Position numbers and translations under genes: made by a program
Virus record (IMG/VR): IMGVR_UViG_3300027909_000015
Length of the DNA: 35,106 nt
Direction: 5' to 3' (one strand)
Source of the DNA: a virus
Shown here: positions 3,370 through 25,401 of the stretch, piece after piece
How positions within the stretch are numbered: the stretch's first letter is position 1
Layout: the number at the start of each line of letters is the position of its first letter
Notes under the pieces: model-generated
Database searches by the model: none
What the model was told of the DNA's origin: nothing
Seen by the model: only the letters and a program-made list of their open reading frames with translations

Positions 3370-3946
3370 CCTCGTCCTCGACGGGTTCCTCCGGCGTTGG
3401 CACGTCGCTCCCCGTCTTGGCTCGATGCGCCGTCAGCGCCGCCGCGTACTGCGTCTTGCGATCCGTCAGGAACTTGGGGCGCTCGTACTCGTTGAGTAGC
3501 GCCTCGGGCGGGTGCGGCATCTCCGTGGGTAGGGGACTAATGCTCACGATGTTCGCGAACTTCCGCCCCTTCCGCGTCAGGACGTGCTCAATGGACACGA
3601 GCGCGAACTTGCCGTGCAGCTTATCCACCGGCAACCCCGCTTCCGCCTGCTCCGGCGTGTACTTCTTGCCGCGCCAGCTCTCCAAGAACTTGCGCAAGTT
3701 CGCCTTCTCGTTGGCGGAAAGGGTCATCTCGGTCGTCACGAACGTCAGGCTCTTGTCCTCCTGCCGTTCGCCTGACGCAAAGACGAGCGCGACCTTCGCG
3801 ACTTCGCGTGGCTCCTGGCCGGGGAACTGCTCGACGTTCACCCCCAGGTTCACCACGTCCACGCACAACATGGGAAACTGTCCCTCGGCGTGGGGATTGA
3901 AATTGCCGCCTGAGTCCTTGGCGGTTACGGCGTCAGGTTTCTGCAT
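3350..3946 (-). CDS. SSB-like protein with an acidic C-terminal tip (possibly DUF669-type), 198 aa
   Basis: Track ORF whose C-terminus EDEDDDLPF mimics the canonical SSB tip (DDDIPF). The body does not read as a classical OB-fold SSB. Confidence 0.55.
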   Translation of the reverse strand: MQKPDAVTAKDSGGNFNPHAEGQFPMLCVDVVNLGVNVEQFPGQEPREVAKVALVFASGERQEDKSLTFVTTEMTLSANEKANLRKFLESWRGKKYTPEQAEAGLPVDKLHGKFALVSIEHVLTRKGRKFANIVSISPLPTEMPHPPEALLNEYERPKFLTDRKTQYAAALTAHRAKTGSDVPTPEEPVEDEDDDLPF

Positions 3947-4134
3947 TAGCGGTCCAACCTTTCATCGAGAATCATCGGGTCGCCCCAGGTCTCGCTGTGA
4001 ATGGTATCAAACGGCATCCCATCATCCTCCATTGGGCCTTGCATCTGCGCTTCGTGGCCTTCCATTTCCTTGACGTACTCGGGATCGCAGTCACACGACC
4101 AGCCCACCGAGCCCCCGCAGGTTTTGCAGATCAT
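3946..4134 (-). CDS. Acidic Cys-rich small protein, 62 aa
   Basis: MICKTCGGSVGWSCDCDPEYVKEMEGH... Its ATG forms an ATGA overlap with the upstream stop, and a TAATG junction links it to the downstream SSB-like gene. Confidence 0.55.
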   Translation of the reverse strand: MICKTCGGSVGWSCDCDPEYVKEMEGHEAQMQGPMEDDGMPFDTIHSETWGDPMILDERLDR

Positions 4135-4310
4135 CGGACCACCCCAAGTTTCGGGTTCACGACGTGCGAGCGCACTACCTGCCCCCCGTGCGGATTCTTC
4201 GCGTGCAGGTGACAGAGCACCCCGGCCCGTCTGGGGAGCTTGCAGATTTTGCCCCGGCGCGTCACCGCGAGACACCGAGCGAACCGATCGAGCGGGCGCT
4301 TGCGCTTCAC
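4131..4310 (-). CDS. Small basic Cys/His protein, 59 aa
   Basis: GTG 4310 forms a GTGA overlap with the upstream stop. The sequence RCLAVTRRGKICKLPRRAGVLCHLH resembles the short C..C..C.H fingers seen in many phage proteins. Confidence 0.5.
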   Translation of the reverse strand: MKRKRPLDRFARCLAVTRRGKICKLPRRAGVLCHLHAKNPHGGQVVRSHVVNPKLGVVR

Positions 4311-9216: not shown

Positions 9217-9587
9217 GCGCCCCCGACGTGAGCCCCCCGGAGCAGTTGGCGCAACTCGTCGGCGTGCGGAGCGAACTGGCGACGGCGCTCGCAACGGCGC
9301 TGCACGAGGCCCGTTCCAATCCCACGGGCTACCCGCTTCGACAAGCCATCGAGGGGGCGCTGACCGAACTTGCGGCGCTGCAAAAACTGGCGAAATCGTG
9401 GCGGGTGGAGAGCGCCCCACCAGCAGGGCCGAGCGCCGAAACACTTGCGAACTGGATTCTCAACGTGCCCGACGTACAAGTCTGGTACGGCGAGACATCC
9501 CACGGGCCGCACCCCGCGCGCTGGCTAGCCGATTATCTGGCAACGAAGTTAGGGGTGTCCTCCCCAGAACCGGAAGGGAACCGATGA
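9213..9587 (+). CDS. Hypothetical protein, 124 aa
   Basis: Track ORF with a GTGA overlap. Confidence 0.6.
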   Translation: MSAPDVSPPEQLAQLVGVRSELATALATALHEARSNPTGYPLRQAIEGALTELAALQKLAKSWRVESAPPAGPSAETLANWILNVPDVQVWYGETSHGPHPARWLADYLATKLGVSSPEPEGNR

Positions 9588-10168
9588 TCGGGGTTTTCAT
9601 TTCCGTGGACGACCGCCCCCACAAGCTCCCGATGGGCTGGGTGATCCAAGAGAATGGCTGTTGGGATTGGGTGGGCACCAAGAATAGTCGCGGATACGGC
9701 ACCATGTGGGATTCTGGTATGCCGGGGCGCAGAATCGGGGCGCATCGTGTCGGCTACGAGCGGGTCAAGGGACCGATCCCGGCTGGCCTGACGATCGACC
9801 ATCTGTGCAGGAATCCGTCCTGCGGCAATCCTGACCACCTAGAAGCCGTGACGCTGATGGAGAACATCCGACGCGGCAATTGGCCTCGCGCTGGGCCCGG
9901 GCAGCGAACGCACTGCAACTATGGGCATCCGTTGTCGGGGGACAACCTGTACGTGGAGACTAGTCGGGCGCATCCCTATAAGTCGCGCCGGTGCAGAATC
10001 TGCCAACGGGCCAACGGAAAAAAGAAACGCTCTAAGAGGCGACCGTATTTCGTTGCGCGCTGTGACTGCGGGTGGCGCGGTCGCCGGTGGGTAGGATTAG
10101 GTAGTCCCTGTCCGAAATGCGGCAAGAAACCGCACGCCTATTCCCCGACACCAAGGAGCGCTCGATGA
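9584..10168 (+). CDS. HNH endonuclease (HNH_3-type), paralogue 1, 194 aa
   Basis: In the frame of track ORF 9398-10168, starting at ATG 9584. It carries GCWDWVG...GYG...AHRVGYE...IDHLCRNPSCGNPDHLEAVT..EN plus C-terminal Cys pairs. Confidence 0.8.
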   Translation: MIGVFISVDDRPHKLPMGWVIQENGCWDWVGTKNSRGYGTMWDSGMPGRRIGAHRVGYERVKGPIPAGLTIDHLCRNPSCGNPDHLEAVTLMENIRRGNWPRAGPGQRTHCNYGHPLSGDNLYVETSRAHPYKSRRCRICQRANGKKKRSKRRPYFVARCDCGWRGRRWVGLGSPCPKCGKKPHAYSPTPRSAR

Positions 10169-10359: not shown

Positions 10360-10774
10360 CGGAATGGATTCTGTGACGCAGCCGTCTAGTGGGGAGCCCG
10401 AAGGCCGGGACGCGCCGCCCCCGGATGACTTTCGGACGTGGGCAGAAGCACTCGTGCGCCACCTTCGCGTGAGCGCCGACAACGCCACCAGCAGGCAGCA
10501 CGAAGGCGATTGCCGCGCCGCGATCGAAGTGATCGAGCGACTACTGGCGCGGGGCTCGTCTCAGGCGGGCAGCGCCCCAATGCGAGTAACGGATGAAATG
10601 GTGGAGGCGTATGAGCGGGCATTGTGGGGCGCCACCTGGGACAAAATCCCCGACGACGATACCGACGAATGGGCAGGACGGAAACGTCGCCGCGCGGATG
10701 GCCGCGAATTGCTGGAGAAAATGTTCGGCGTGTTGGGGGCGGACAGCGCCGGAAGCCCAGGAGACAAAAAGTGA
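10349..10774 (+). CDS. Hypothetical protein, 141 aa
   Basis: In the frame of track ORF 10169-10774, starting at ATG 10349. Confidence 0.55.
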   Translation: MDADGMDSVTQPSSGEPEGRDAPPPDDFRTWAEALVRHLRVSADNATSRQHEGDCRAAIEVIERLLARGSSQAGSAPMRVTDEMVEAYERALWGATWDKIPDDDTDEWAGRKRRRADGRELLEKMFGVLGADSAGSPGDKK

Positions 10775-11202
10775 TCGGCGTATTTATCCCCGTTGACGAT
10801 AAGCCGCACCGGCTCCCGCAAGGCTGGGTGATCCAGGAGAACGGCTGCTGGGATTGGGTGGGCGCACTCAGCCCTGAGGGCTACGCCACTGGTCGCGCTC
10901 ATCGCGTCAGCTACGAGCGATTCGTCGGCCCCATTCCAGATGGCTTGACGATAGACCACCTGTGTCGGAACCGCCGCTGTGGGAATCCCGACCATATGGA
11001 GGCCGTAACGAATCGGGTGAACGTCCTGCGCGGGATCGGGCCTACCGCACGGCACGCGAGGCAAACCCATTGCAAGTACGGGCATCCATTCTCCCCGGAG
11101 AACACCTATTGGCGCACCAACGGTGCACGGCGGTGTCGCCATTGCCAGCGGGTCTACCTGAAAGAATACAAGTTGACTTGGCGGAAAGGGGTAACGACAT
11201 GA
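10771..11202 (+). CDS. HNH endonuclease (HNH_3-type), paralogue 2, 143 aa
   Basis: GTG 10771 forms a GTGA overlap. The sequence VIGVFIPVDDKPHRLPQGWVIQENGCWDWVG...IDHLCRNRRCGNPDHMEAVT aligns along its length with 9584-10168. Confidence 0.8.
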   Translation: MIGVFIPVDDKPHRLPQGWVIQENGCWDWVGALSPEGYATGRAHRVSYERFVGPIPDGLTIDHLCRNRRCGNPDHMEAVTNRVNVLRGIGPTARHARQTHCKYGHPFSPENTYWRTNGARRCRHCQRVYLKEYKLTWRKGVTT

Positions 11203-12748: not shown

Positions 12749-13135
12749 CTAATCGGCGCGAATCAGCAAGCGGCTCCCCCCATTCACCGGGAGGAGTGCG
12801 AGGTGGATGTGAGAGTCCTGCTTGGAGTTAACCAGTTCGAGCTCCACCCCTCTGGCCCCCGCCACTTGGTACACGGCTTTGACAAACCGCCACAGGGCTG
12901 AGGGATTCGTGATCCACTTCAAGTCAAAGGCCCGGCCTTGCAAGTGCCACGAAGTCGGACTAGAACCGGACGCGGCGGCGTTCTCCTCTGCGGTTCTGGC
13001 GTCCGAAGTCACGACGAGGGGCTGGCCGTAGGCCGCCCGCACATCATCCAAGAAGTGCGCGGCCTCGGCCTCCAAGAGTTCGGGGTGGCGAAACTCGTCC
13101 AGCCGGAAGTACCGCAGATTAGCCGTGAGGGGCAT
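12749..13135 (-). CDS. Endolysin, peptidase M15 (VanY / L-alanyl-D-glutamate peptidase-like), 128 aa
   Basis: In the frame of track ORF 12749-13174, starting at ATG 13135. It has the zinc-ligand pattern SWHLQGRAFD ... DSHIHLAL and LDEFRHPE near the N-terminus. Confidence 0.8.
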   Translation of the reverse strand: MPLTANLRYFRLDEFRHPELLEAEAAHFLDDVRAAYGQPLVVTSDARTAEENAAASGSSPTSWHLQGRAFDLKWITNPSALWRFVKAVYQVAGARGVELELVNSKQDSHIHLALLPVNGGSRLLIRAD

Positions 13136-13448
13136 CCGGGGCTTTCTCTTTGATGACGGCTTCCAACTTCTCAACCAACTGCTCGGGATCGAAGGGCTTG
13201 TAGAGATCGGGCTGCTCGCTCGGGTCCCCGGAGATCACGATAAAGGGCACCCCCGGATAGAGTTCCCGCAAATGCCTGCCGTCCCCATTCGGGAGCCGGA
13301 TATCCGCCACCACCACATCAAACGGCCCCGGCTGCGCCTTCGCCTCTTGGAGCGAGTTCGCCGTCAAGACCTGCCAGCCCTTCTTTGACAACACCCGTTG
13401 GGCCAAGACCGTGATAATAGGCTCGTCATCCACGATCAGGATGTTCAC
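13119..13448 (-). CDS. Stand-alone response-regulator receiver (CheY-like REC) domain protein, 109 aa
   Basis: Track ORF MNILIVDDEP...FDVVVADIRLPNGDG...FIVISG...YKPF. It has the acidic pair D7/D8, phospho-acceptor D49, S73 and K84-P-F. There is no output domain. The GTG start forms a GTGA overlap. Confidence 0.8.
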   Translation of the reverse strand: MNILIVDDEPIITVLAQRVLSKKGWQVLTANSLQEAKAQPGPFDVVVADIRLPNGDGRHLRELYPGVPFIVISGDPSEQPDLYKPFDPEQLVEKLEAVIKEKAPDAPHG

Positions 13449-17393: not shown

Positions 17394-17725
17394 AGGTCAC
17401 GCTCCATCACGATAGACTGAAAGTGCCAGCCGCTCGACAAGAGCCACGGCACGCGGCGCCACCCTTCGCGCCCCATCAGACTCGCCCGCGTACAGCCCAT
17501 CGCCCGCCCCCAATCGAGGATGGCGGGGACCATAGATTGCACCTCGGCCATCCGCCCTTCGGTCAAAAAGAAGTGCAGATACTTGGCGAGCGGCGTTTCG
17601 CGGATTTCGGTGACGATGATGGACTCCCCTTCGCCCCAACCCTGGAAGCGCCCACAGGCTACCCCTTCGGCAATGTCTTCAGGCCGATGCGTGTTCGCGA
17701 GGGCTAAGGCGTGGGGAGCGATCAA
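17390..17725 (-). CDS. Hypothetical protein, 111 aa (weak resemblance to the C-terminal half of a GNAT fold)
   Basis: Track ORF. The ..MGCTRASLMGREGWRRV..GW... pattern is only suggestive. Confidence 0.5.
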   Translation of the reverse strand: MIAPHALALANTHRPEDIAEGVACGRFQGWGEGESIIVTEIRETPLAKYLHFFLTEGRMAEVQSMVPAILDWGRAMGCTRASLMGREGWRRVPWLLSSGWHFQSIVMERDL

Positions 17726-19113
17726 ATATCCGCCCCTGACCGATAGGTCTCGATGAGGTTTGTCCCGTCATCGTAGAACTCATAGAGACGCCGCTTCGTG
17801 CTCGCGGGTGCCACGAACGCCCCGGCAAGCAAATAGGCGCCCCCGAACGTCACCGCACCGAGCGCCCCCCCGGACGAGTTCTTGATATCCAGCAACAGCC
17901 GTCGCCCCGTCCGCCGATTGTTGCCATTGTTGACCGTGAACGCCGTTCCATTAGTGGCGACAATCGTGTTGACTTGCGCCTCATGGTTCGGGTTCATGGA
18001 AGCAGAATAGGTGATGGCATTGATCTGCACTTCAGGAGCGGGCAGCATCGACAACGGCCCATTCGTCGTCATCTCCCCGACCCGCGTCGAACGCCGCACG
18101 CCAGCCTGCGTATCGTTGAACGTCAACCCCCCAGGCGCCGCATAGGAGTTGAGCCCGAACATGCTCGGACTCGTCCCCCCCACTGGAACGATGTCAATAG
18201 TCAGAGTACCGGAAGGGATCAACTCAAAGCGATTACCCAAGAACATGGCGGACACGCCTTCTTGGTGTAACGCCATGGTACTGTTGGTGCCAATGAAGTT
18301 TGATCCGATGACGCGGAGCGTATCAGCGCCCCGCGAAGCAGCCCCATCCACATAAATGAACGTGGCCGTCGTTCCAGAGACAAGGCAATCAAGCAAGGAC
18401 GTGCCGTCCGGTTGACTCCCCGCGCTGGAGGTCAAGAGGAAGTTCTTGGCGCTGGCCGCTGCGTTTTCGATTTTGCACTTCAAGAGCGAGTTATACATGA
18501 CATCTCCACCACTCGCTCCGCCCTTGAATTGCACGCCGTAGACATTGGGATTGCCGATGGCGACTCGCACCAGATTGCATTCTGAGGCCGCTTCCAGTCG
18601 AATCCCACCGGCATTATTCGCTTGGTTCACGAAAGCGGAAAACCCGATGTCCTCAATGTGAACTCGTTTAGAAGCGATGGAGGCGTCGTTGGGGATGACC
18701 ATTTCCAGCGCCGTCCCAGCCTTTTGGTAGAGCCAGGTTCCCCGTGATCCTCCGAAGGTGCCTCCTGTCCCCTCCCCAACAATGCGCGTACCAGGGTAAT
18801 ACTTGAGTTGGGTGAAGATATAGCCATTGTTGGCGTCCAAGGCCGGGACGTAAACACCTCGGTAGGCACGGGCATTGGCGGCATCAATCGCTGCCTGAAT
18901 GGCGGCGGTATCGTCGGTCACGCCATCCCCGACCGCCCCAAACGCCTTCACATTGAACAGCGGCCCCGTCAGAGCAGGGGGGACAGTTGAATCAGGGTCA
19001 TAACCCGACCCTGAGAGGAGTTCCCGAAGCGCTCGGTTATTTGTGTCAGAAAGTGTCGGATGTCCTCGTCCGACCATGCGCTCAGCATAGAGTTGCCAGG
19101 GAAGTGCAGCCAT
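17722..19113 (-). CDS. Tailspike with a right-handed beta-helix (pectate-lyase-3 type) depolymerase domain, 463 aa
   Basis: Track ORF. The motif FNVKAFGAVGDGVTDDTAAIQAAIDAA is the hallmark start of the Pectate_lyase_3 / tailspike beta-helix. Confidence 0.75.
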   Translation of the reverse strand: MAALPWQLYAERMVGRGHPTLSDTNNRALRELLSGSGYDPDSTVPPALTGPLFNVKAFGAVGDGVTDDTAAIQAAIDAANARAYRGVYVPALDANNGYIFTQLKYYPGTRIVGEGTGGTFGGSRGTWLYQKAGTALEMVIPNDASIASKRVHIEDIGFSAFVNQANNAGGIRLEAASECNLVRVAIGNPNVYGVQFKGGASGGDVMYNSLLKCKIENAAASAKNFLLTSSAGSQPDGTSLLDCLVSGTTATFIYVDGAASRGADTLRVIGSNFIGTNSTMALHQEGVSAMFLGNRFELIPSGTLTIDIVPVGGTSPSMFGLNSYAAPGGLTFNDTQAGVRRSTRVGEMTTNGPLSMLPAPEVQINAITYSASMNPNHEAQVNTIVATNGTAFTVNNGNNRRTGRRLLLDIKNSSGGALGAVTFGGAYLLAGAFVAPASTKRRLYEFYDDGTNLIETYRSGADI

Positions 19114-22800: not shown

Positions 22801-23505
22801 TTAGAACACCCTCGATAGGGGTTGGAATCGTGGCCGCGTTCCGAAGGCGAGACGCTCGTCCTGTATCCGAATGTCTCGGAGTATCTTGGTAAACCGCGCT
22901 TCCCAAAGCGGCGTCCGCTCGTCATGCTGGAGATACGGCGCGGCTTCACAGAGCGCCCCATAGAGATACAGGTCGGGATGCTCCTGCCACACGGGGTTGG
23001 TCGCGTAGTTCGCCGCGCTAATCGGGAGGCCGAAGCTCGCGTTGAGCCCGATCATCGAGACGACGAGCGTGTAGAAGCTGTCCACCCCGGCGGAATCCTT
23101 GGGCGTGTTGGGGAGCGGATAGACTTTGAAACTCGTCCCGACTGCGGCGTAGGCTTCCGGGGCGCCAGGTCCCGGACTCGTGGTGTGCCACTCCATGAGT
23201 TGGTCCAGCGACACCTGTGGGAGTGGGGTCACGAGGCCAGAGGTATCGGCGGCGTCGGCGACTTTCCACCCGCAGGACTGAATCTCGACGGGGGTGAGGC
23301 CGACCGAGGCGATGGCGCTCGTTAACCCCGTGCCTGCCGCGACGGGCAGCGAAAACGCCCCGGTGCGGGTCAGGAAGGCGCGGAGTTCGCGCTGGAGCCG
23401 CGCTTCGGCGAGCCGAATGAAGTCGGGAATCCGCGCATCCAAGTCTGACCTTGCCAGCCACGCGGCGATGTTCGTCACGAGATCGTCGTAGGTGACGAAG
23501 GCCAT
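22801..23505 (-). CDS. Head-to-tail adaptor-like protein (tentative), 234 aa
   Basis: Track ORF. The N-terminus Y.DL...IA.WL.RSDL...IPDFI.LAE.RL.REL matches the adaptor/connector N-terminal pattern seen in many podoviruses. Confidence 0.45.
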   Translation of the reverse strand: MAFVTYDDLVTNIAAWLARSDLDARIPDFIRLAEARLQRELRAFLTRTGAFSLPVAAGTGLTSAIASVGLTPVEIQSCGWKVADAADTSGLVTPLPQVSLDQLMEWHTTSPGPGAPEAYAAVGTSFKVYPLPNTPKDSAGVDSFYTLVVSMIGLNASFGLPISAANYATNPVWQEHPDLYLYGALCEAAPYLQHDERTPLWEARFTKILRDIRIQDERLAFGTRPRFQPLSRVF

Positions 23506-24158
23506 TAGACCGCCGCCCGCGTCTGGACGGACTGCCGGGACGCCACGGCGTGTTGCGCCTCAAACTCCACCATCCCGATATGGGTCACCTGCTTCGAGAG
23601 GTCGTGATCCACGAGGATCGTCGCCCCGGCCTTCCGTAGCTGCTGACAGAAGTAGAGGTCTTCACCCACGTGAGCCCGGTCATCGGGGACATACCCCATC
23701 ATGAAGCGGGGAGCTGGTACAGTGCGGAGGAGATCGGCTTGGACGAGCATGACGCCCATCCCCGTCGCCGCGACAGGCTCAAGCCCGGTCGAGTCTTCCT
23801 CGGTATAGACCCGCGTCATCGGGTCGCCCAAGGACTTGACGCTCACGGGATGAAACGGGGGCCGTCTGGTCGTGTAGTTCGCGGCCACGACGGGTTGCTC
23901 GTGCGCGAGGAGCCGAACCAATGCGTCGGTCGGAAATCGCATGTCCGAGTCCAGATAGAGCAGGAAGTCGCATTGGGCCCGGAGGGCGGCGTCGGTCGTC
24001 TTTTCCCGTAACTCGGGCAGCCAGCAGCCGGTTGCCAGAAACCGCCGGAGGTCCAGGTCGGGACGCGCCGCAACAGTGTAAGCGAGGAGCCCGGCGAGGT
24101 CGTACGAGTGCCAGGCGAAGACCAAATCTGTCGAGACCAAGCAGACACCGACTCTCAT
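23505..24158 (-). CDS. GT-A fold glycosyltransferase (family-2-like), 217 aa
   Basis: Track ORF with DxD motif LLYLDSDMRF and a later GEDLYFCQQLRKAG motif. Its ATG forms an ATGA overlap with the Endo VII stop. Confidence 0.65.
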   Translation of the reverse strand: MRVGVCLVSTDLVFAWHSYDLAGLLAYTVAARPDLDLRRFLATGCWLPELREKTTDAALRAQCDFLLYLDSDMRFPTDALVRLLAHEQPVVAANYTTRRPPFHPVSVKSLGDPMTRVYTEEDSTGLEPVAATGMGVMLVQADLLRTVPAPRFMMGYVPDDRAHVGEDLYFCQQLRKAGATILVDHDLSKQVTHIGMVEFEAQHAVASRQSVQTRAAV

Positions 24159-24598
24159 CCTTTCTCCACGTAATCGGCGGCGCGACGTAGGGCGCGCACA
24201 TTGTCCCTGAAACTCCCCAGCCCTTGATTACAACCAGAGCAGAGGAGCCCGCGCACCTTCCCAGTTTTGTGGTCGTGATCGAGATGCGTTCCAGCGCCAA
24301 GCGCCTGCAAGACGTTGCCGCAAAGGGCGCAACATTCGCCCTGCTTCTCAAATAGGGCGTGGTACTGATCGAGCGTCACCCCATAAACCCGCGCCAGCCA
24401 TCCGAACTTGCGATTGGCCGTCACGGCTTCGGGATTGTCTTTCTCCCACTTGCGGCAGGCCGCGATATGGCGTTCGGGATACTTTTCCCGCCACGTTTTC
24501 TTGCGGGCAGAGGAACACGTCCGGCAGGTACGCTGCCCGCTGGTGGGATAGGTGTACCAATTGCTATGTCCGTTCTGGCATATCACTTGTTTAGTCAT
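24155..24598 (-). CDS. Recombination endonuclease VII family nuclease (free-standing homing-type), 147 aa
   Basis: In the frame of track ORF 24155-24634, starting at ATG 24598. It carries the signature HLDHDHKTGKVRGLLCSGCNQGLG. Confidence 0.8.
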   Translation of the reverse strand: MTKQVICQNGHSNWYTYPTSGQRTCRTCSSARKKTWREKYPERHIAACRKWEKDNPEAVTANRKFGWLARVYGVTLDQYHALFEKQGECCALCGNVLQALGAGTHLDHDHKTGKVRGLLCSGCNQGLGSFRDNVRALRRAADYVEKG

Positions 24599-24648
24599 CG
24601 CCACGCCCAGACATGATCGGTCGAGACAAGACACACCCCCACTCTCAC
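24595..24648 (-). pseudogene. 17-codon remnant or leader copy of the glycosyltransferase N-terminus
   Basis: Its GTG forms a GTGA overlap with the upstream stop, and its TGA forms an ATGA overlap with the Endo VII ATG. By hand count it matches the GT start at 35/51 nt and 13/17 aa. Confidence 0.55.
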
Positions 24649-24974
24649 AGTTTGCCCGCCTTGATGCGGAACAGTTTGTTGTCTGGGTCGTTCAAGAACC
24701 GATGGAGCGCTTTCTGGCGGTCCAATGCCCCGAGCCCCTTCGCGCGCCATTCCTTCAAGAGCCCGAAGTAAATCGGCAGCGGGATACTCGCCACCAGATT
24801 GTCGTTGTCCTTCCACTTCCCGTCCTGCAACGGCGCGAGGTCCTTGTTCTGCTCGATGATCGGCTCCACGTCCACCGCGCTGTCCACGGCGAACCGCCCA
24901 TCGGGCAGCGTGTGAAAGGTCCGCACCCGCCCCGTCAGGGGGTCAGTATCGAGGATCATCGTGGTGTCGCTCAC
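24645..24974 (-). CDS. Hypothetical head-module protein, 109 aa (ATG alternative about 15 nt downstream)
   Basis: C-terminal part of track ORF 24645-25130. GTG 24974 forms a GTGA overlap. Confidence 0.6.
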   Translation of the reverse strand: MSDTTMILDTDPLTGRVRTFHTLPDGRFAVDSAVDVEPIIEQNKDLAPLQDGKWKDNDNLVASIPLPIYFGLLKEWRAKGLGALDRQKALHRFLNDPDNKLFRIKAGKL

Positions 24975-25084
24975 GAATAGCCCTCTTTCTTCCGCTGACG
25001 AAAGCCTTTCGCGGCGACCCGGAGCTGCTGCTTCGGCCTCGGCACTTGGACCTTCACCTTGGGGGCTGGGGGACGTTTCGGCAT
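24971..25084 (-). CDS. Very basic 37-aa micro-protein
   Basis: MPKRPPAPKVKVQVPRPKQQLRVAAKGFRQRKKEGYS, from track ORF 24971-25156. The ATG forms a TGATG junction with the upstream stop. Confidence 0.4.
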   Translation of the reverse strand: MPKRPPAPKVKVQVPRPKQQLRVAAKGFRQRKKEGYS

Positions 25085-25401
25085 CAGGGCCGTTGGACGT
25101 TGAAGACGTACGTCCCCGCCGGGGGCACATTCGCGACGGCGGTGAAGTTGCCCCACTGAATCGCGACGGTGGTCGCGTTCACCACTCTGGCCCCGACGAT
25201 GCCGACATTGGTCGCGAAGGCCGCTGGAGGATTCACGGTCACAAAATCCGTCACCGCCAAGACGAGCGGGGTCCCGGCGCCCGTGGCGTAGCGCTGGAGG
25301 CCCGCCGTCACGTCGTAGGATTCCTCCGACACCCCGACCGCTGCCGCTCGTGCCGATGGCGTGAGGGCGACCCCGAACACGATGGCACCCGCGAAGGCCA
25401 T
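25084..25401 (-). CDS. Hypothetical head-module protein, 105 aa, beta-rich (possible decoration protein)
   Basis: In the frame of track ORF 25084-25611. ATG 25401 lies in a TAATG junction. Confidence 0.55.
   Translation of the reverse strand: MAFAGAIVFGVALTPSARAAAVGVSEESYDVTAGLQRYATGAGTPLVLAVTDFVTVNPPAAFATNVGIVGARVVNATTVAIQWGNFTAVANVPPAGTYVFNVQRP

Follow-up and report, generated by a model that had tools for sequence, protein, structure and literature searches.

Much of the mosaicism of phages is driven by free-standing nuclease genes, and those of phage T4 drive co-conversion of the markers that flank them (PMC2988022); how such a gene enters a packed, translationally chained operon without harm is rarely visible. 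Here we analyse a locus of this kind in the IMG/VR virus record IMGVR_UViG_3300027909_000015, a stretch of 35,106 nucleotides (nt) that we refer to as the window, where a gene with the motif of endonuclease VII (Endo VII) lies between two diverged copies of the start of a putative glycosyltransferase (GT) gene. We consider it probable that the locus holds a mobile nuclease cassette which has replaced one end of the gene that it entered.

The nuclease is likened by motif and architecture to F-CphI, the product of ORF177 of cyanophage S-PM2 (PMC6083498). Both are encoded by free-standing phage genes, both carry a C-terminal Endo VII motif behind a separate N-terminal region in a protein of about 130-150 amino acids (aa), and of the relatives with a solved structure Hpy99I and the core of T4 Endo VII are nearest to both. 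F-CphI targets the psbA intron-insertion site, with cleavage shown, whereas the nuclease of the window adjoins GT in a late virion operon. By its position the locus resembles SegF, SegG and MobE of T4, whose nuclease genes are likewise wedged between conserved genes, variably present and often overlapping with the upstream open reading frame (ORF); even the overlap of T4 mobE, UAAUGA, recurs as TAATGA in two of the relatives described below, L004 and L005. The T4 review that reports these cases describes no gene-end duplication (the term 'duplicat' is absent from it; PMC2988022). In the ICP1 phages nuclease genes mark recombination breakpoints between relatives (PMC10448857), and the longest identical tract between the window and its relative L001 is likewise centred on the cassette. 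The ICP1 nuclease families, T5orf172 and IPA-HNH, are unlike that of the window, and a term search of the same paper showed no duplicated gene ends described.

A parallel to the duplicated gene end is found in fungal mitochondria, where mobile open reading frames (mORFs; PMC3630166; see also PMC6279837) have formed gene hybrids at atp6 of Allomyces macrogynus and at atp6, atp9, cox2 and nad3 of Glomus (PMC3630166). In these hybrids, as apparently in the window, an endonuclease ORF brings with it a gene end of foreign origin, which takes the place of the resident one, a native-like remnant lies beside the element, and the two copies differ mainly at silent sites; the Glomus atp6 copies share 63.5% nt and 91% aa identity (PMC3630166), compared with 69% and 76% in the window. 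The fungal elements concern 3' ends, encode LAGLIDADG or GIY-YIG enzymes and are often fused in frame, whereas in the window it is the 5' end that appears to be replaced, the enzyme is of the Endo VII-motif type, and the ORFs are separate, with 4-nt overlaps in a phage operon. The direct 3'-end analogue of the fungal elements is the HNH cassette of L004 and L005. Our literature searches for such duplications beside phage homing endonucleases yielded organelle papers only. In the case of mobE of Aeh1, located in nrdA, the gene is split rather than having an end replaced. The enzyme family and the selfish strategy are known, the setting and the orientation are new, and the case ties phage 'intronless homing' to the gene-hybrid mechanism of fungal mitochondrial mORFs.

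The start of the GT gene is duplicated around the nuclease gene

Coordinates are positions in the window throughout, and all genes around the junction lie on the minus strand. The sequence-only reading of this stretch had claimed that the first 51 nt of the GT gene (copy B in Table 1) recur at 24648-24598 (copy A), with the Endo VII gene exactly between both copies. Recomputation reproduces the claim: the copies are identical at 35 of 51 nt (69%) and 13 of 17 aa (76%), and between them lies a 147-aa ORF with a match to Pfam PF02945. The differences are found mainly at third codon positions, as had also been proposed (10 of 16; identity at codon positions 1, 2 and 3 is 14/17, 14/17 and 7/17). 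An independent repeat search returned a direct repeat of 48 nt, 24110-24157 against 24600-24647, with 73% identity and a spacing of 490 nt.

A lack of significance of the 51-nt similarity had been named beforehand as a possible refutation. We compared copy B with every position of the window on both strands, where the second-best match reached only 29/51 nt, and with the six-frame translation of the window, where the second-best 17-residue peptide reached only 7/17. The repeat therefore lies far outside the background of the window, and a chance similarity of the two copies is ruled out.

The three overlaps that had been described are all present in the sequence. The stop of the preceding gene, which we call up (TGA at 24647-24645), overlaps the GTG with which copy A begins (CTGTGA, a GTGA overlap); copy A and its stop codon form a mini-ORF whose TGA (24597-24595) overlaps the Endo VII ATG (24598-24596) in CGATGAC; and the Endo VII TGA (24157-24155) overlaps the GT ATG (24158-24156) in GGATGAG, so that the last two overlaps are of the ATGA type.

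A self-splicing intron or an intein that joins copy A to the GT body in RNA or protein would also place an endonuclease gene within a divided gene, and Endo VII-motif nucleases do occur within group I introns of other phages (PMC6083498). However, the region 23400-25200 has no Rfam family match at E<=1, the 444-nt ORF fills the 490-nt insert and leaves no space for a ribozyme core, and copy B gives GT a complete N-terminus with its own ATG, which makes splicing needless. The nuclease is moreover in another frame than the mini-ORF, with a stop codon between. The Rfam result and the direct reading of the frames led us to reject this explanation, to which we attach practically no credence.

Relatives without the nuclease join the flanking genes directly

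Relatives were drawn from IMG/VR, from JGI metagenomes and from contigs encoding GT or nuclease homologs. They form 17 informative contig groups, all with the gene order capsid ... up - GT - adaptor. No nuclease is present at the junction in 12 of the 17, where up is joined to GT directly by a 4-nt overlap. Ten of these groups have a CTGTGA junction with GTG as the GT start (L001/L002, L003, L006, L011, L012, L023-25, L026, L110, L111/112 and L115), and two have an ATGA junction with ATG as the GT start (L027 and L113/114). The expectation that relatives lacking the nuclease would show up joined to GT by GTGA is in this way borne out for the direct joining in all 12 groups and for the GTGA itself in ten, with ATGA in its place in the other two. 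A scan of the JGI metagenomes added only two new short loci, both of which are empty sites. The junction is occupied in five cases, all at the same up/GT position, and the presence of an insert is variable at this one fixed position among collinear relatives.

Some of the empty alleles have features of their own. L113 (600-700), L114 (665-765) and L115 (275-375) encode an identical GT protein (P0131) and differ in the last ~40 nt of up, with a CTATGA junction and an ATG start in L113 and L114 compared with CTGTGA and GTG in L115. Because the same GT protein is combined with different ends of up, the junction itself is a recombination breakpoint, even where the alleles have no nuclease. In L027 (GCA_035312845.1, DATGBE010000821.1) an additional ORF of 152 aa without a Pfam or PHROG match is found between GT and the adaptor gene (L027:1783-2241), and the GT protein has a 14-residue C-terminal extension; this ORF may be another insertion, at the next operon junction. 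Downstream of the adaptor gene, the closely related contigs L023 and L024 have a 365-nt uncalled gap (3813-4178) and a 122-aa ORF (1640-2008), respectively, and the junction near their adaptor may also be variable.

The displaced copy resembles the native gene start

Compared with the close empty alleles, copy A has 4-8 mismatches in 49 nt, no more than the usual divergence among these genomes (80-90% identity), and over its first 29 nt it does not differ from L001/L002 at all. It encodes the family-wide N-terminal consensus MR[VI]G[VIL]CLVSTDHVWAW and, the junction codon aside, its differences are either silent or polymorphisms also found in relatives. Copy B, which is contiguous with the GT body, is composed of two parts. 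Its nt 1-21 have 6-7 mismatches in 21 to every close relative, almost all of them silent, and the bases A1, T12, C15, T19 and G21 are unique among the close relatives compared. From nt 22 to nt 51 it matches the L001/L002 allele exactly, with the derived changes H12L and W14F. The break in the native sequence falls at GT nt 49/50; by these two replacements plus silent changes the working copy differs from it. The codon choices of copy B are seen singly and scattered in more distant natural alleles (L111, L113, L023 and L026).

Since copy A is native-like and nt 1-21 of copy B are diverged, it appears that the displaced, truncated copy A is the resident one, and that copy B received at least its first 21 nt together with the nuclease. 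For the codon variants of copy B, import from an unsampled relative seems to fit better than local drift. The sequence-only reading had seen in the repeat an imported flank rather than a recent local duplication. This part of it stands for nt 1-21 of copy B, in line with the native-like copy A and with the low GC content at third codon positions (GC3) of the nuclease gene, which at 0.67 compared with 0.74-0.87 in its neighbours is marked as foreign, but it does not hold for nt 22-51, given their identity to L001/L002.

The same comparison bears on an origin of the repeat in place, that is, a tandem duplication of the GT 5' end in situ, perhaps at gene capture, followed by divergence of the copies without any import from another phage. 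The direct orientation of the copies, 490 nt apart, agrees with this, as does the failure to find a donor of the copy B 5' end (exact 21-mer, IMG/VR). It is contradicted by the way in which the differences gather at third positions, and by the fact that both copies hold codon variants of natural alleles (copy A like L001 and L006, nt 22-51 of copy B as in L001); together these two observations argue that the copies are functional alleles which had diverged before being joined. A copy drifting in place would moreover gain non-synonymous changes, whereas copy A shows no such change of its own outside the junction codon. In the mirror-image case of L004 and L005, discussed below, the 'NASEN' end of up is likewise a natural allele, found in L022. 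We regard a duplication in situ as very improbable.

Deletion of the cassette in silico recreates an empty allele

When the cassette is deleted in silico, so that copy A nt 1-29 are followed by copy B nt 30-51 (with the crossover anywhere in the shared GTCTCGAC), the product is the L001/L002 allele with zero mismatches. The joined allele and L001 share a 65-nt exact run across the junction and, past one swapped Ser codon, a further run of 48 nt. No other run in an ungapped comparison of up plus GT (980 nt, 81% identity) is as long; this comparison was used since automatic alignment is unreliable around the insert. In the controls L003 and L006 the longest exact runs are 34 and 32 nt and are located elsewhere.

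Two histories fit. An ancestor of L001/L002 may have carried the cassette and lost it when the diverged repeats recombined, or an allele like that of L001 may have received the cassette by homing, with conversion tracts that were very short. Under both readings the sequences point to a recent exchange, centred on the cassette, that connects the lineages of the window and L001/L002. Recombination between diverged repeats would also be a concrete route to the precise loss of a nuclease gene.

The nuclease fits the DHHRN family

The nuclease matches the Pfam family PF02945 (Endonuclease_7) with E 2e-25 and 89 bits (cut-off 23.6), its residues 67-145 covering profile positions 4-82 of 82, and the PHROG 'endonuclease VII' families with E 3.5e-35. 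Residues 67-145 form the catalytic domain, in front of which lie a CHCC zinc-ribbon-like region and a helical region; a fold search with this N-terminal region gave no match. In an alignment of 33 sequences C90, C93, D107, H108, H110, R116, C120 and N124 are invariant, and C123 is invariant among the six closest sequences and conserved in at least 90% of the 33. All the CX2-4C...D-H-(D)-H...R...CX2C-N residues by which the DHHRN family was defined around the cyanophage homing endonuclease F-CphI (PMC6083498) are present, with both CX2C pairs intact. In this group a C-terminal motif denotes the endonuclease clade and an N-terminal motif the T4 gp49-type resolvase clade (PMC6083498). By its motif and the C-terminal placement of it, the nuclease of the window fits the Endo VII-motif (DHHRN) homing endonuclease family.

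The protein might instead serve the phage, as a Holliday-junction resolvase or a packaging-associated nuclease, in which case it would not be selfish and the mini-ORF would be an incidental scar. The T4 gp49 resolvase belongs to PF02945, and it has been proposed that some podoviruses use Endo VII as a resolvase (PMC6083498). However, only a core of the nuclease aligns to T4 Endo VII. The PDB sequence matches are Hpy99I (5.5e-7) and this T4 Endo VII core (4.6e-6), the latter with only nuclease residues 80-133 (~55 residues) against T4 residues 13-71, and Foldseek finds only weak core matches for the nuclease model, with a template-modelling (TM) score of 0.32 over 65-81 columns. The full-length T4 gp49-type architecture is not found here, the domain order being reversed and the dimerisation domain missing, and the C-terminal motif is that of the endonuclease clade. 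A resolvase would also not be expected from the distribution of the gene, which is missing at the junction in most close relatives and has an unrelated short Endo VII or HNH gene in its place in others, from its location among virion genes and not in a replication/recombination module, or from its atypical codon composition. Even allowing for a divergence from the L019 homolog that equals that of the flanking genes, and for partial Pfam scans of the window that identified no other resolvase, both taken up below, we judge a phage function of this kind improbable.

Searches of the window by tblastn with the Endo VII protein and the L004 HNH protein found no paralogs, and beyond this phage group the nearest Endo VII homolog (P0003) has an unrelated gene context. 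The N-termini of the Endo VII protein (MTKQVICQNGHSNWYTYPTSGQRTCRTC, 24515-24598, minus strand) and of the L004 HNH protein (MTKTCRKCHSDDWYRWSGKNGRLGRSCRPC, L004:522-630) are identical at 16 of 40 positions, with a pairwise E of 0.008. As a weak lead only, the two may share a zinc-ribbon DNA-binding module, but CxxC...CxxC N-termini are common throughout the family.

Other cassettes occupy the same junction

The five occupied cases are the lineage of the window, L019, L022, L004 and L005, and they contain four cassettes with at least three independent origins. L019 has a full-length homolog of the Endo VII gene (56% identical), which is joined to up by an ATGA overlap and to GT by a 10-nt overlap and has no remnant beside it. 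In L022 (L022:2172-2510; JGI 3300051104 Ga0506533_0000017) a 112-aa Endo VII-type ORF, uncalled in the source annotation, occupies the 325-nt gap between up and GT; it starts on the native GTGA, and its end overlaps a rebuilt GT start, VGVTRVAICVPSNDHVWAWF. This nuclease is 29% identical to that of the window, compared with 76-77% for the flanking genes, and must therefore have been acquired separately. The source labels the GT protein of L022 (P0124) 'DNA-binding transcriptional LysR family regulator', apparently in error.

The cassette of L004 and L005 encodes a 164-aa HNH nuclease (phrog_2255, E 6e-22) and is inserted in up, ~45 nt short of its end. The HNH identity comes from PHROGs, Pfam having given no nuclease domain, and in IMG/VR the gene is found on those two contigs only. 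The working end of up (…NASENRLFRVKPGKL) is diverged, and its stop TAA overlaps the nuclease ATG as TAATGA. A native-like end of up (MNSDNRLFRVKAGKL or MNPDNKLFRVKAGKL) is kept 3' of the nuclease as a 15-codon mini-ORF, which overlaps the nuclease stop with its start (ATGA) and GT with its end (the native GTGA). The two copies of the up end are identical at 31/48 nt in L004 and 27/48 nt in L005, third positions being the most diverged. This layout is the mirror image of that in the window, with the 3' end of up duplicated instead of the 5' end of GT.

One junction thus displays four solutions: a clean intergenic fit (L019), a rebuilt GT start (L022), a replacement of the up 3' end (L004/L005) and, in the window, what is probably a replacement of the GT 5' end. 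In the last two, remnant ORFs persist that are short, intact and linked by overlaps. With several cassettes at one hotspot, the steps can be read unusually well. The junction is also a warning for annotation, since ORFs of 17 codons, and nuclease genes left uncalled as in L022, can hide at junctions of this kind.

Proposed route of insertion and its limits

The history that we think likely for the window begins with the insertion of a homing-type Endo VII-motif gene (F-CphI/DHHRN-like) 49 nt into the GT gene of an SU10-like podovirus. The cassette would consist of the nuclease ORF and a replacement GT 5' end with its own ATG, just 5' of which GGAGAAAGG, a GGAG-type sequence within the last codons of the nuclease gene, is a putative ribosome-binding site. 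Because the cassette would supply the replacement 5' end, GT would remain intact. The resident 5' end, copy A, would have been pushed upstream and kept as the mini-ORF, which reaches from the ancestral GTGA to the nuclease ATG. Ribosomes could then run from up through the mini-ORF and the nuclease gene into GT via the three 4-nt overlaps, and the late operon would stay chained; we infer both translation of the mini-ORF and a coupling of translation through it.

The protein would cut nuclease-free alleles near the junction and spread by break repair, and the H12L/W14F (LVF) variant carried with the cassette would shield the carrier from cutting. The remnant itself could have been made by one illegitimate joining at GT nt 49/50 (…GCGTGGC joined to GATGACT…). 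With the HVW-, LVF- and HVF-type alleles, defined substrates are at hand for asking which targets an Endo VII-motif homing enzyme recognises.

Several points weigh against this history. Homologous repair alone leaves no remnant, and the extra illegitimate event must therefore be assumed. No donor with the 5' 21-mer of copy B was found, the exact sequence having no match in IMG/VR, and nt 22-51 of copy B, which equal those of L001, are not foreign. The identity between the window and L019 is 56% for the nuclease, 63% for up and 61% for GT. With a nuclease as diverged as its flanks, long co-residence fits as well as homing does, and the nuclease family may be an old resident of the junction rather than a recent arrival. 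Equal divergence would also suit a resident resolvase, as would the outcome of partial Pfam scans of the window, which identified no other resolvase and gave only HNH_3 genes. Finally, there is no variation across the cassette among the sampled carriers: 13 contigs encode an identical nuclease protein, and the segment 24100-24700 is identical in all 6 loci compared, from 6 different samples.

The 3' end of the remnant is predicted to pair in RNA with nuclease codons 6-13, forming a 54-nt hairpin (24563-24616, minus strand) that encloses the nuclease AUG. Its minimum free energy is -20.4 kcal/mol, compared with -10.2 +/- 2.3 for shuffled sequences (z -4.4; 0 of 200 shuffles as stable), for a 54-nt segment chosen post hoc from a longer fold. 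On this prediction, the nuclease start may become accessible only when the mini-ORF is translated, which we put forward tentatively. As a refinement of the proposed insertion route, the remnant could be a selected leader whose translation opens the hairpin that hides the AUG and keeps a toxic nuclease low and coupled. Such a role would agree with the intact mini-ORF, whose start and stop fall precisely on both overlaps, with the 15-codon mini-ORF between ATGA and GTGA overlaps that the L004/L005 cassette also leaves, and with the hairpin and coupling control documented for T4 nuclease genes (PMC2988022). However, the 141-nt context of the hairpin is not more stable than shuffled sequences (z -0.6), and L019, which has no remnant, has no equivalent hairpin. 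The carriers, moreover, are invariant in sequence, and the remnant may simply be young. A selected leader is conceivable, but we would not expect it.

A wider reading, which we offer as speculation and do not favour, joins these elements. The up/GT junction would be a homing hotspot of SU10-like soil phages, visited by several unrelated cassettes whose replacement gene ends act as cleavage-resistant immunity alleles, while the native end would serve both as a hairpin-gating bridge ORF and as a direct repeat for exact loss, leaving resistant empty alleles such as L001/L002. If this were true, a full cycle of gain, immunity and loss would be readable from sequence, and the locus would be the first phage counterpart, in both orientations, of the fungal mitochondrial mORF gene hybrids.

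Flanking genes and genome context

The window is a nearly complete genome, ~35 kb with a GC content of 63.6%, of an SU10-like podovirus with an SU10 portal, major capsid protein and adaptor. The features around the junction are collected in Table 1.

Table 1. Features at and around the up/GT junction, with positions in the window.
Feature	Position	Strand	Description
up, upstream late gene, 109 aa	24645..24974	(-)	phrog_3982 match, E 8e-15
Copy A	24648-24598	(-)	GTGAGAGTGGGGGTGTGTCTTGTCTCGACCGATCATGTCTGGGCGTGGCGA, encodes VRVGVCLVSTDHVWAWR, then TGA
Mini-ORF (copy A + stop)	24595..24648	(-)	17 codons, GTG...CGA TGA; probable remnant of the native GT 5' end
Endo VII-motif nuclease (DHHRN-type, beta-beta-alpha-Me), 147 aa, free-standing	24155..24598	(-)	Pfam and PHROG matches
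Copy B	24158-24108	(-)	ATGAGAGTCGGTGTCTGCTTGGTCTCGACAGATTTGGTCTTCGCCTGGCAC, encodes MRVGVCLVSTDLVFAWH; ATG-start working 5' end of the 217-aa GT
Putative GT-A fold glycosyltransferase (GT), 217 aa	23505..24158	(-)	predicted structure; DxD at D70-S-D72
SU10-type head-tail adaptor	22801..23505	(-)	Pfam PF24175, E 2.9e-25; TAATG overlap with GT stop

Homologs of up that are 72-79% identical are located directly upstream of GT in L001-L006 (tblastn). The AlphaFold model of GT has a predicted local distance difference test score of 92.8, and its top Foldseek matches are the GT-A enzymes COLGALT1, the GT domain of LH3 and STIV A197 (E ~1e-10, TM 0.55-0.62). D70-x-D72 is invariant in the alignment. 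A search of Pfam returned only a sub-threshold match to Glyco_transf_21, and the GT profile found no match among PDB sequences. Judging from the model, 'glycosyltransferase' is a reasonable label for the gene. In the model strand beta1 runs through residues 2-9 and residue 15 is the first of helix 1, so the 17 duplicated codons span beta1 and the start of helix 1 and would be structurally necessary for the GT fold.

The junctions of the operon chain are, in order, TAATG, TGATG, GTGA, GTGA, ATGA, ATGA and TAATG. A promoter and terminator scan gave nothing that exceeded shuffle expectation. No relative of GT was found among the GTDB representative genomes. There is a weak hint of a host in L027, a 3.7-kb contig binned in a metagenome-assembled genome of a planctomycete (Gemmataceae), and no other host link.

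Elsewhere in the window, a pair of paralogous ORFs for HNH_3-type endonucleases is located at 9398-10168 and 10624-11202, both on the plus strand, at a spacing of 1187 nt and with a 201-aa ORF between them. The first matches Pfam PF13392 (E 2.4e-12) and phrog_826 (E 4e-41), and the N-terminal stretches of the two ORFs (9585-9676 and 10772-10863) have 79% nt identity. Counting the Endo VII gene with these two ORFs, the genome therefore has at least three homing-type nuclease genes. Most ORFs of the window between 1 and 12000 have no Pfam match. A protein with a pectate-lyase-like (RHGA/epimerase) domain, probably a tail spike or depolymerase, is encoded at 17722-19113 on the minus strand, and an M15 peptidase, likely the endolysin, at 12749-13174 on the same strand.

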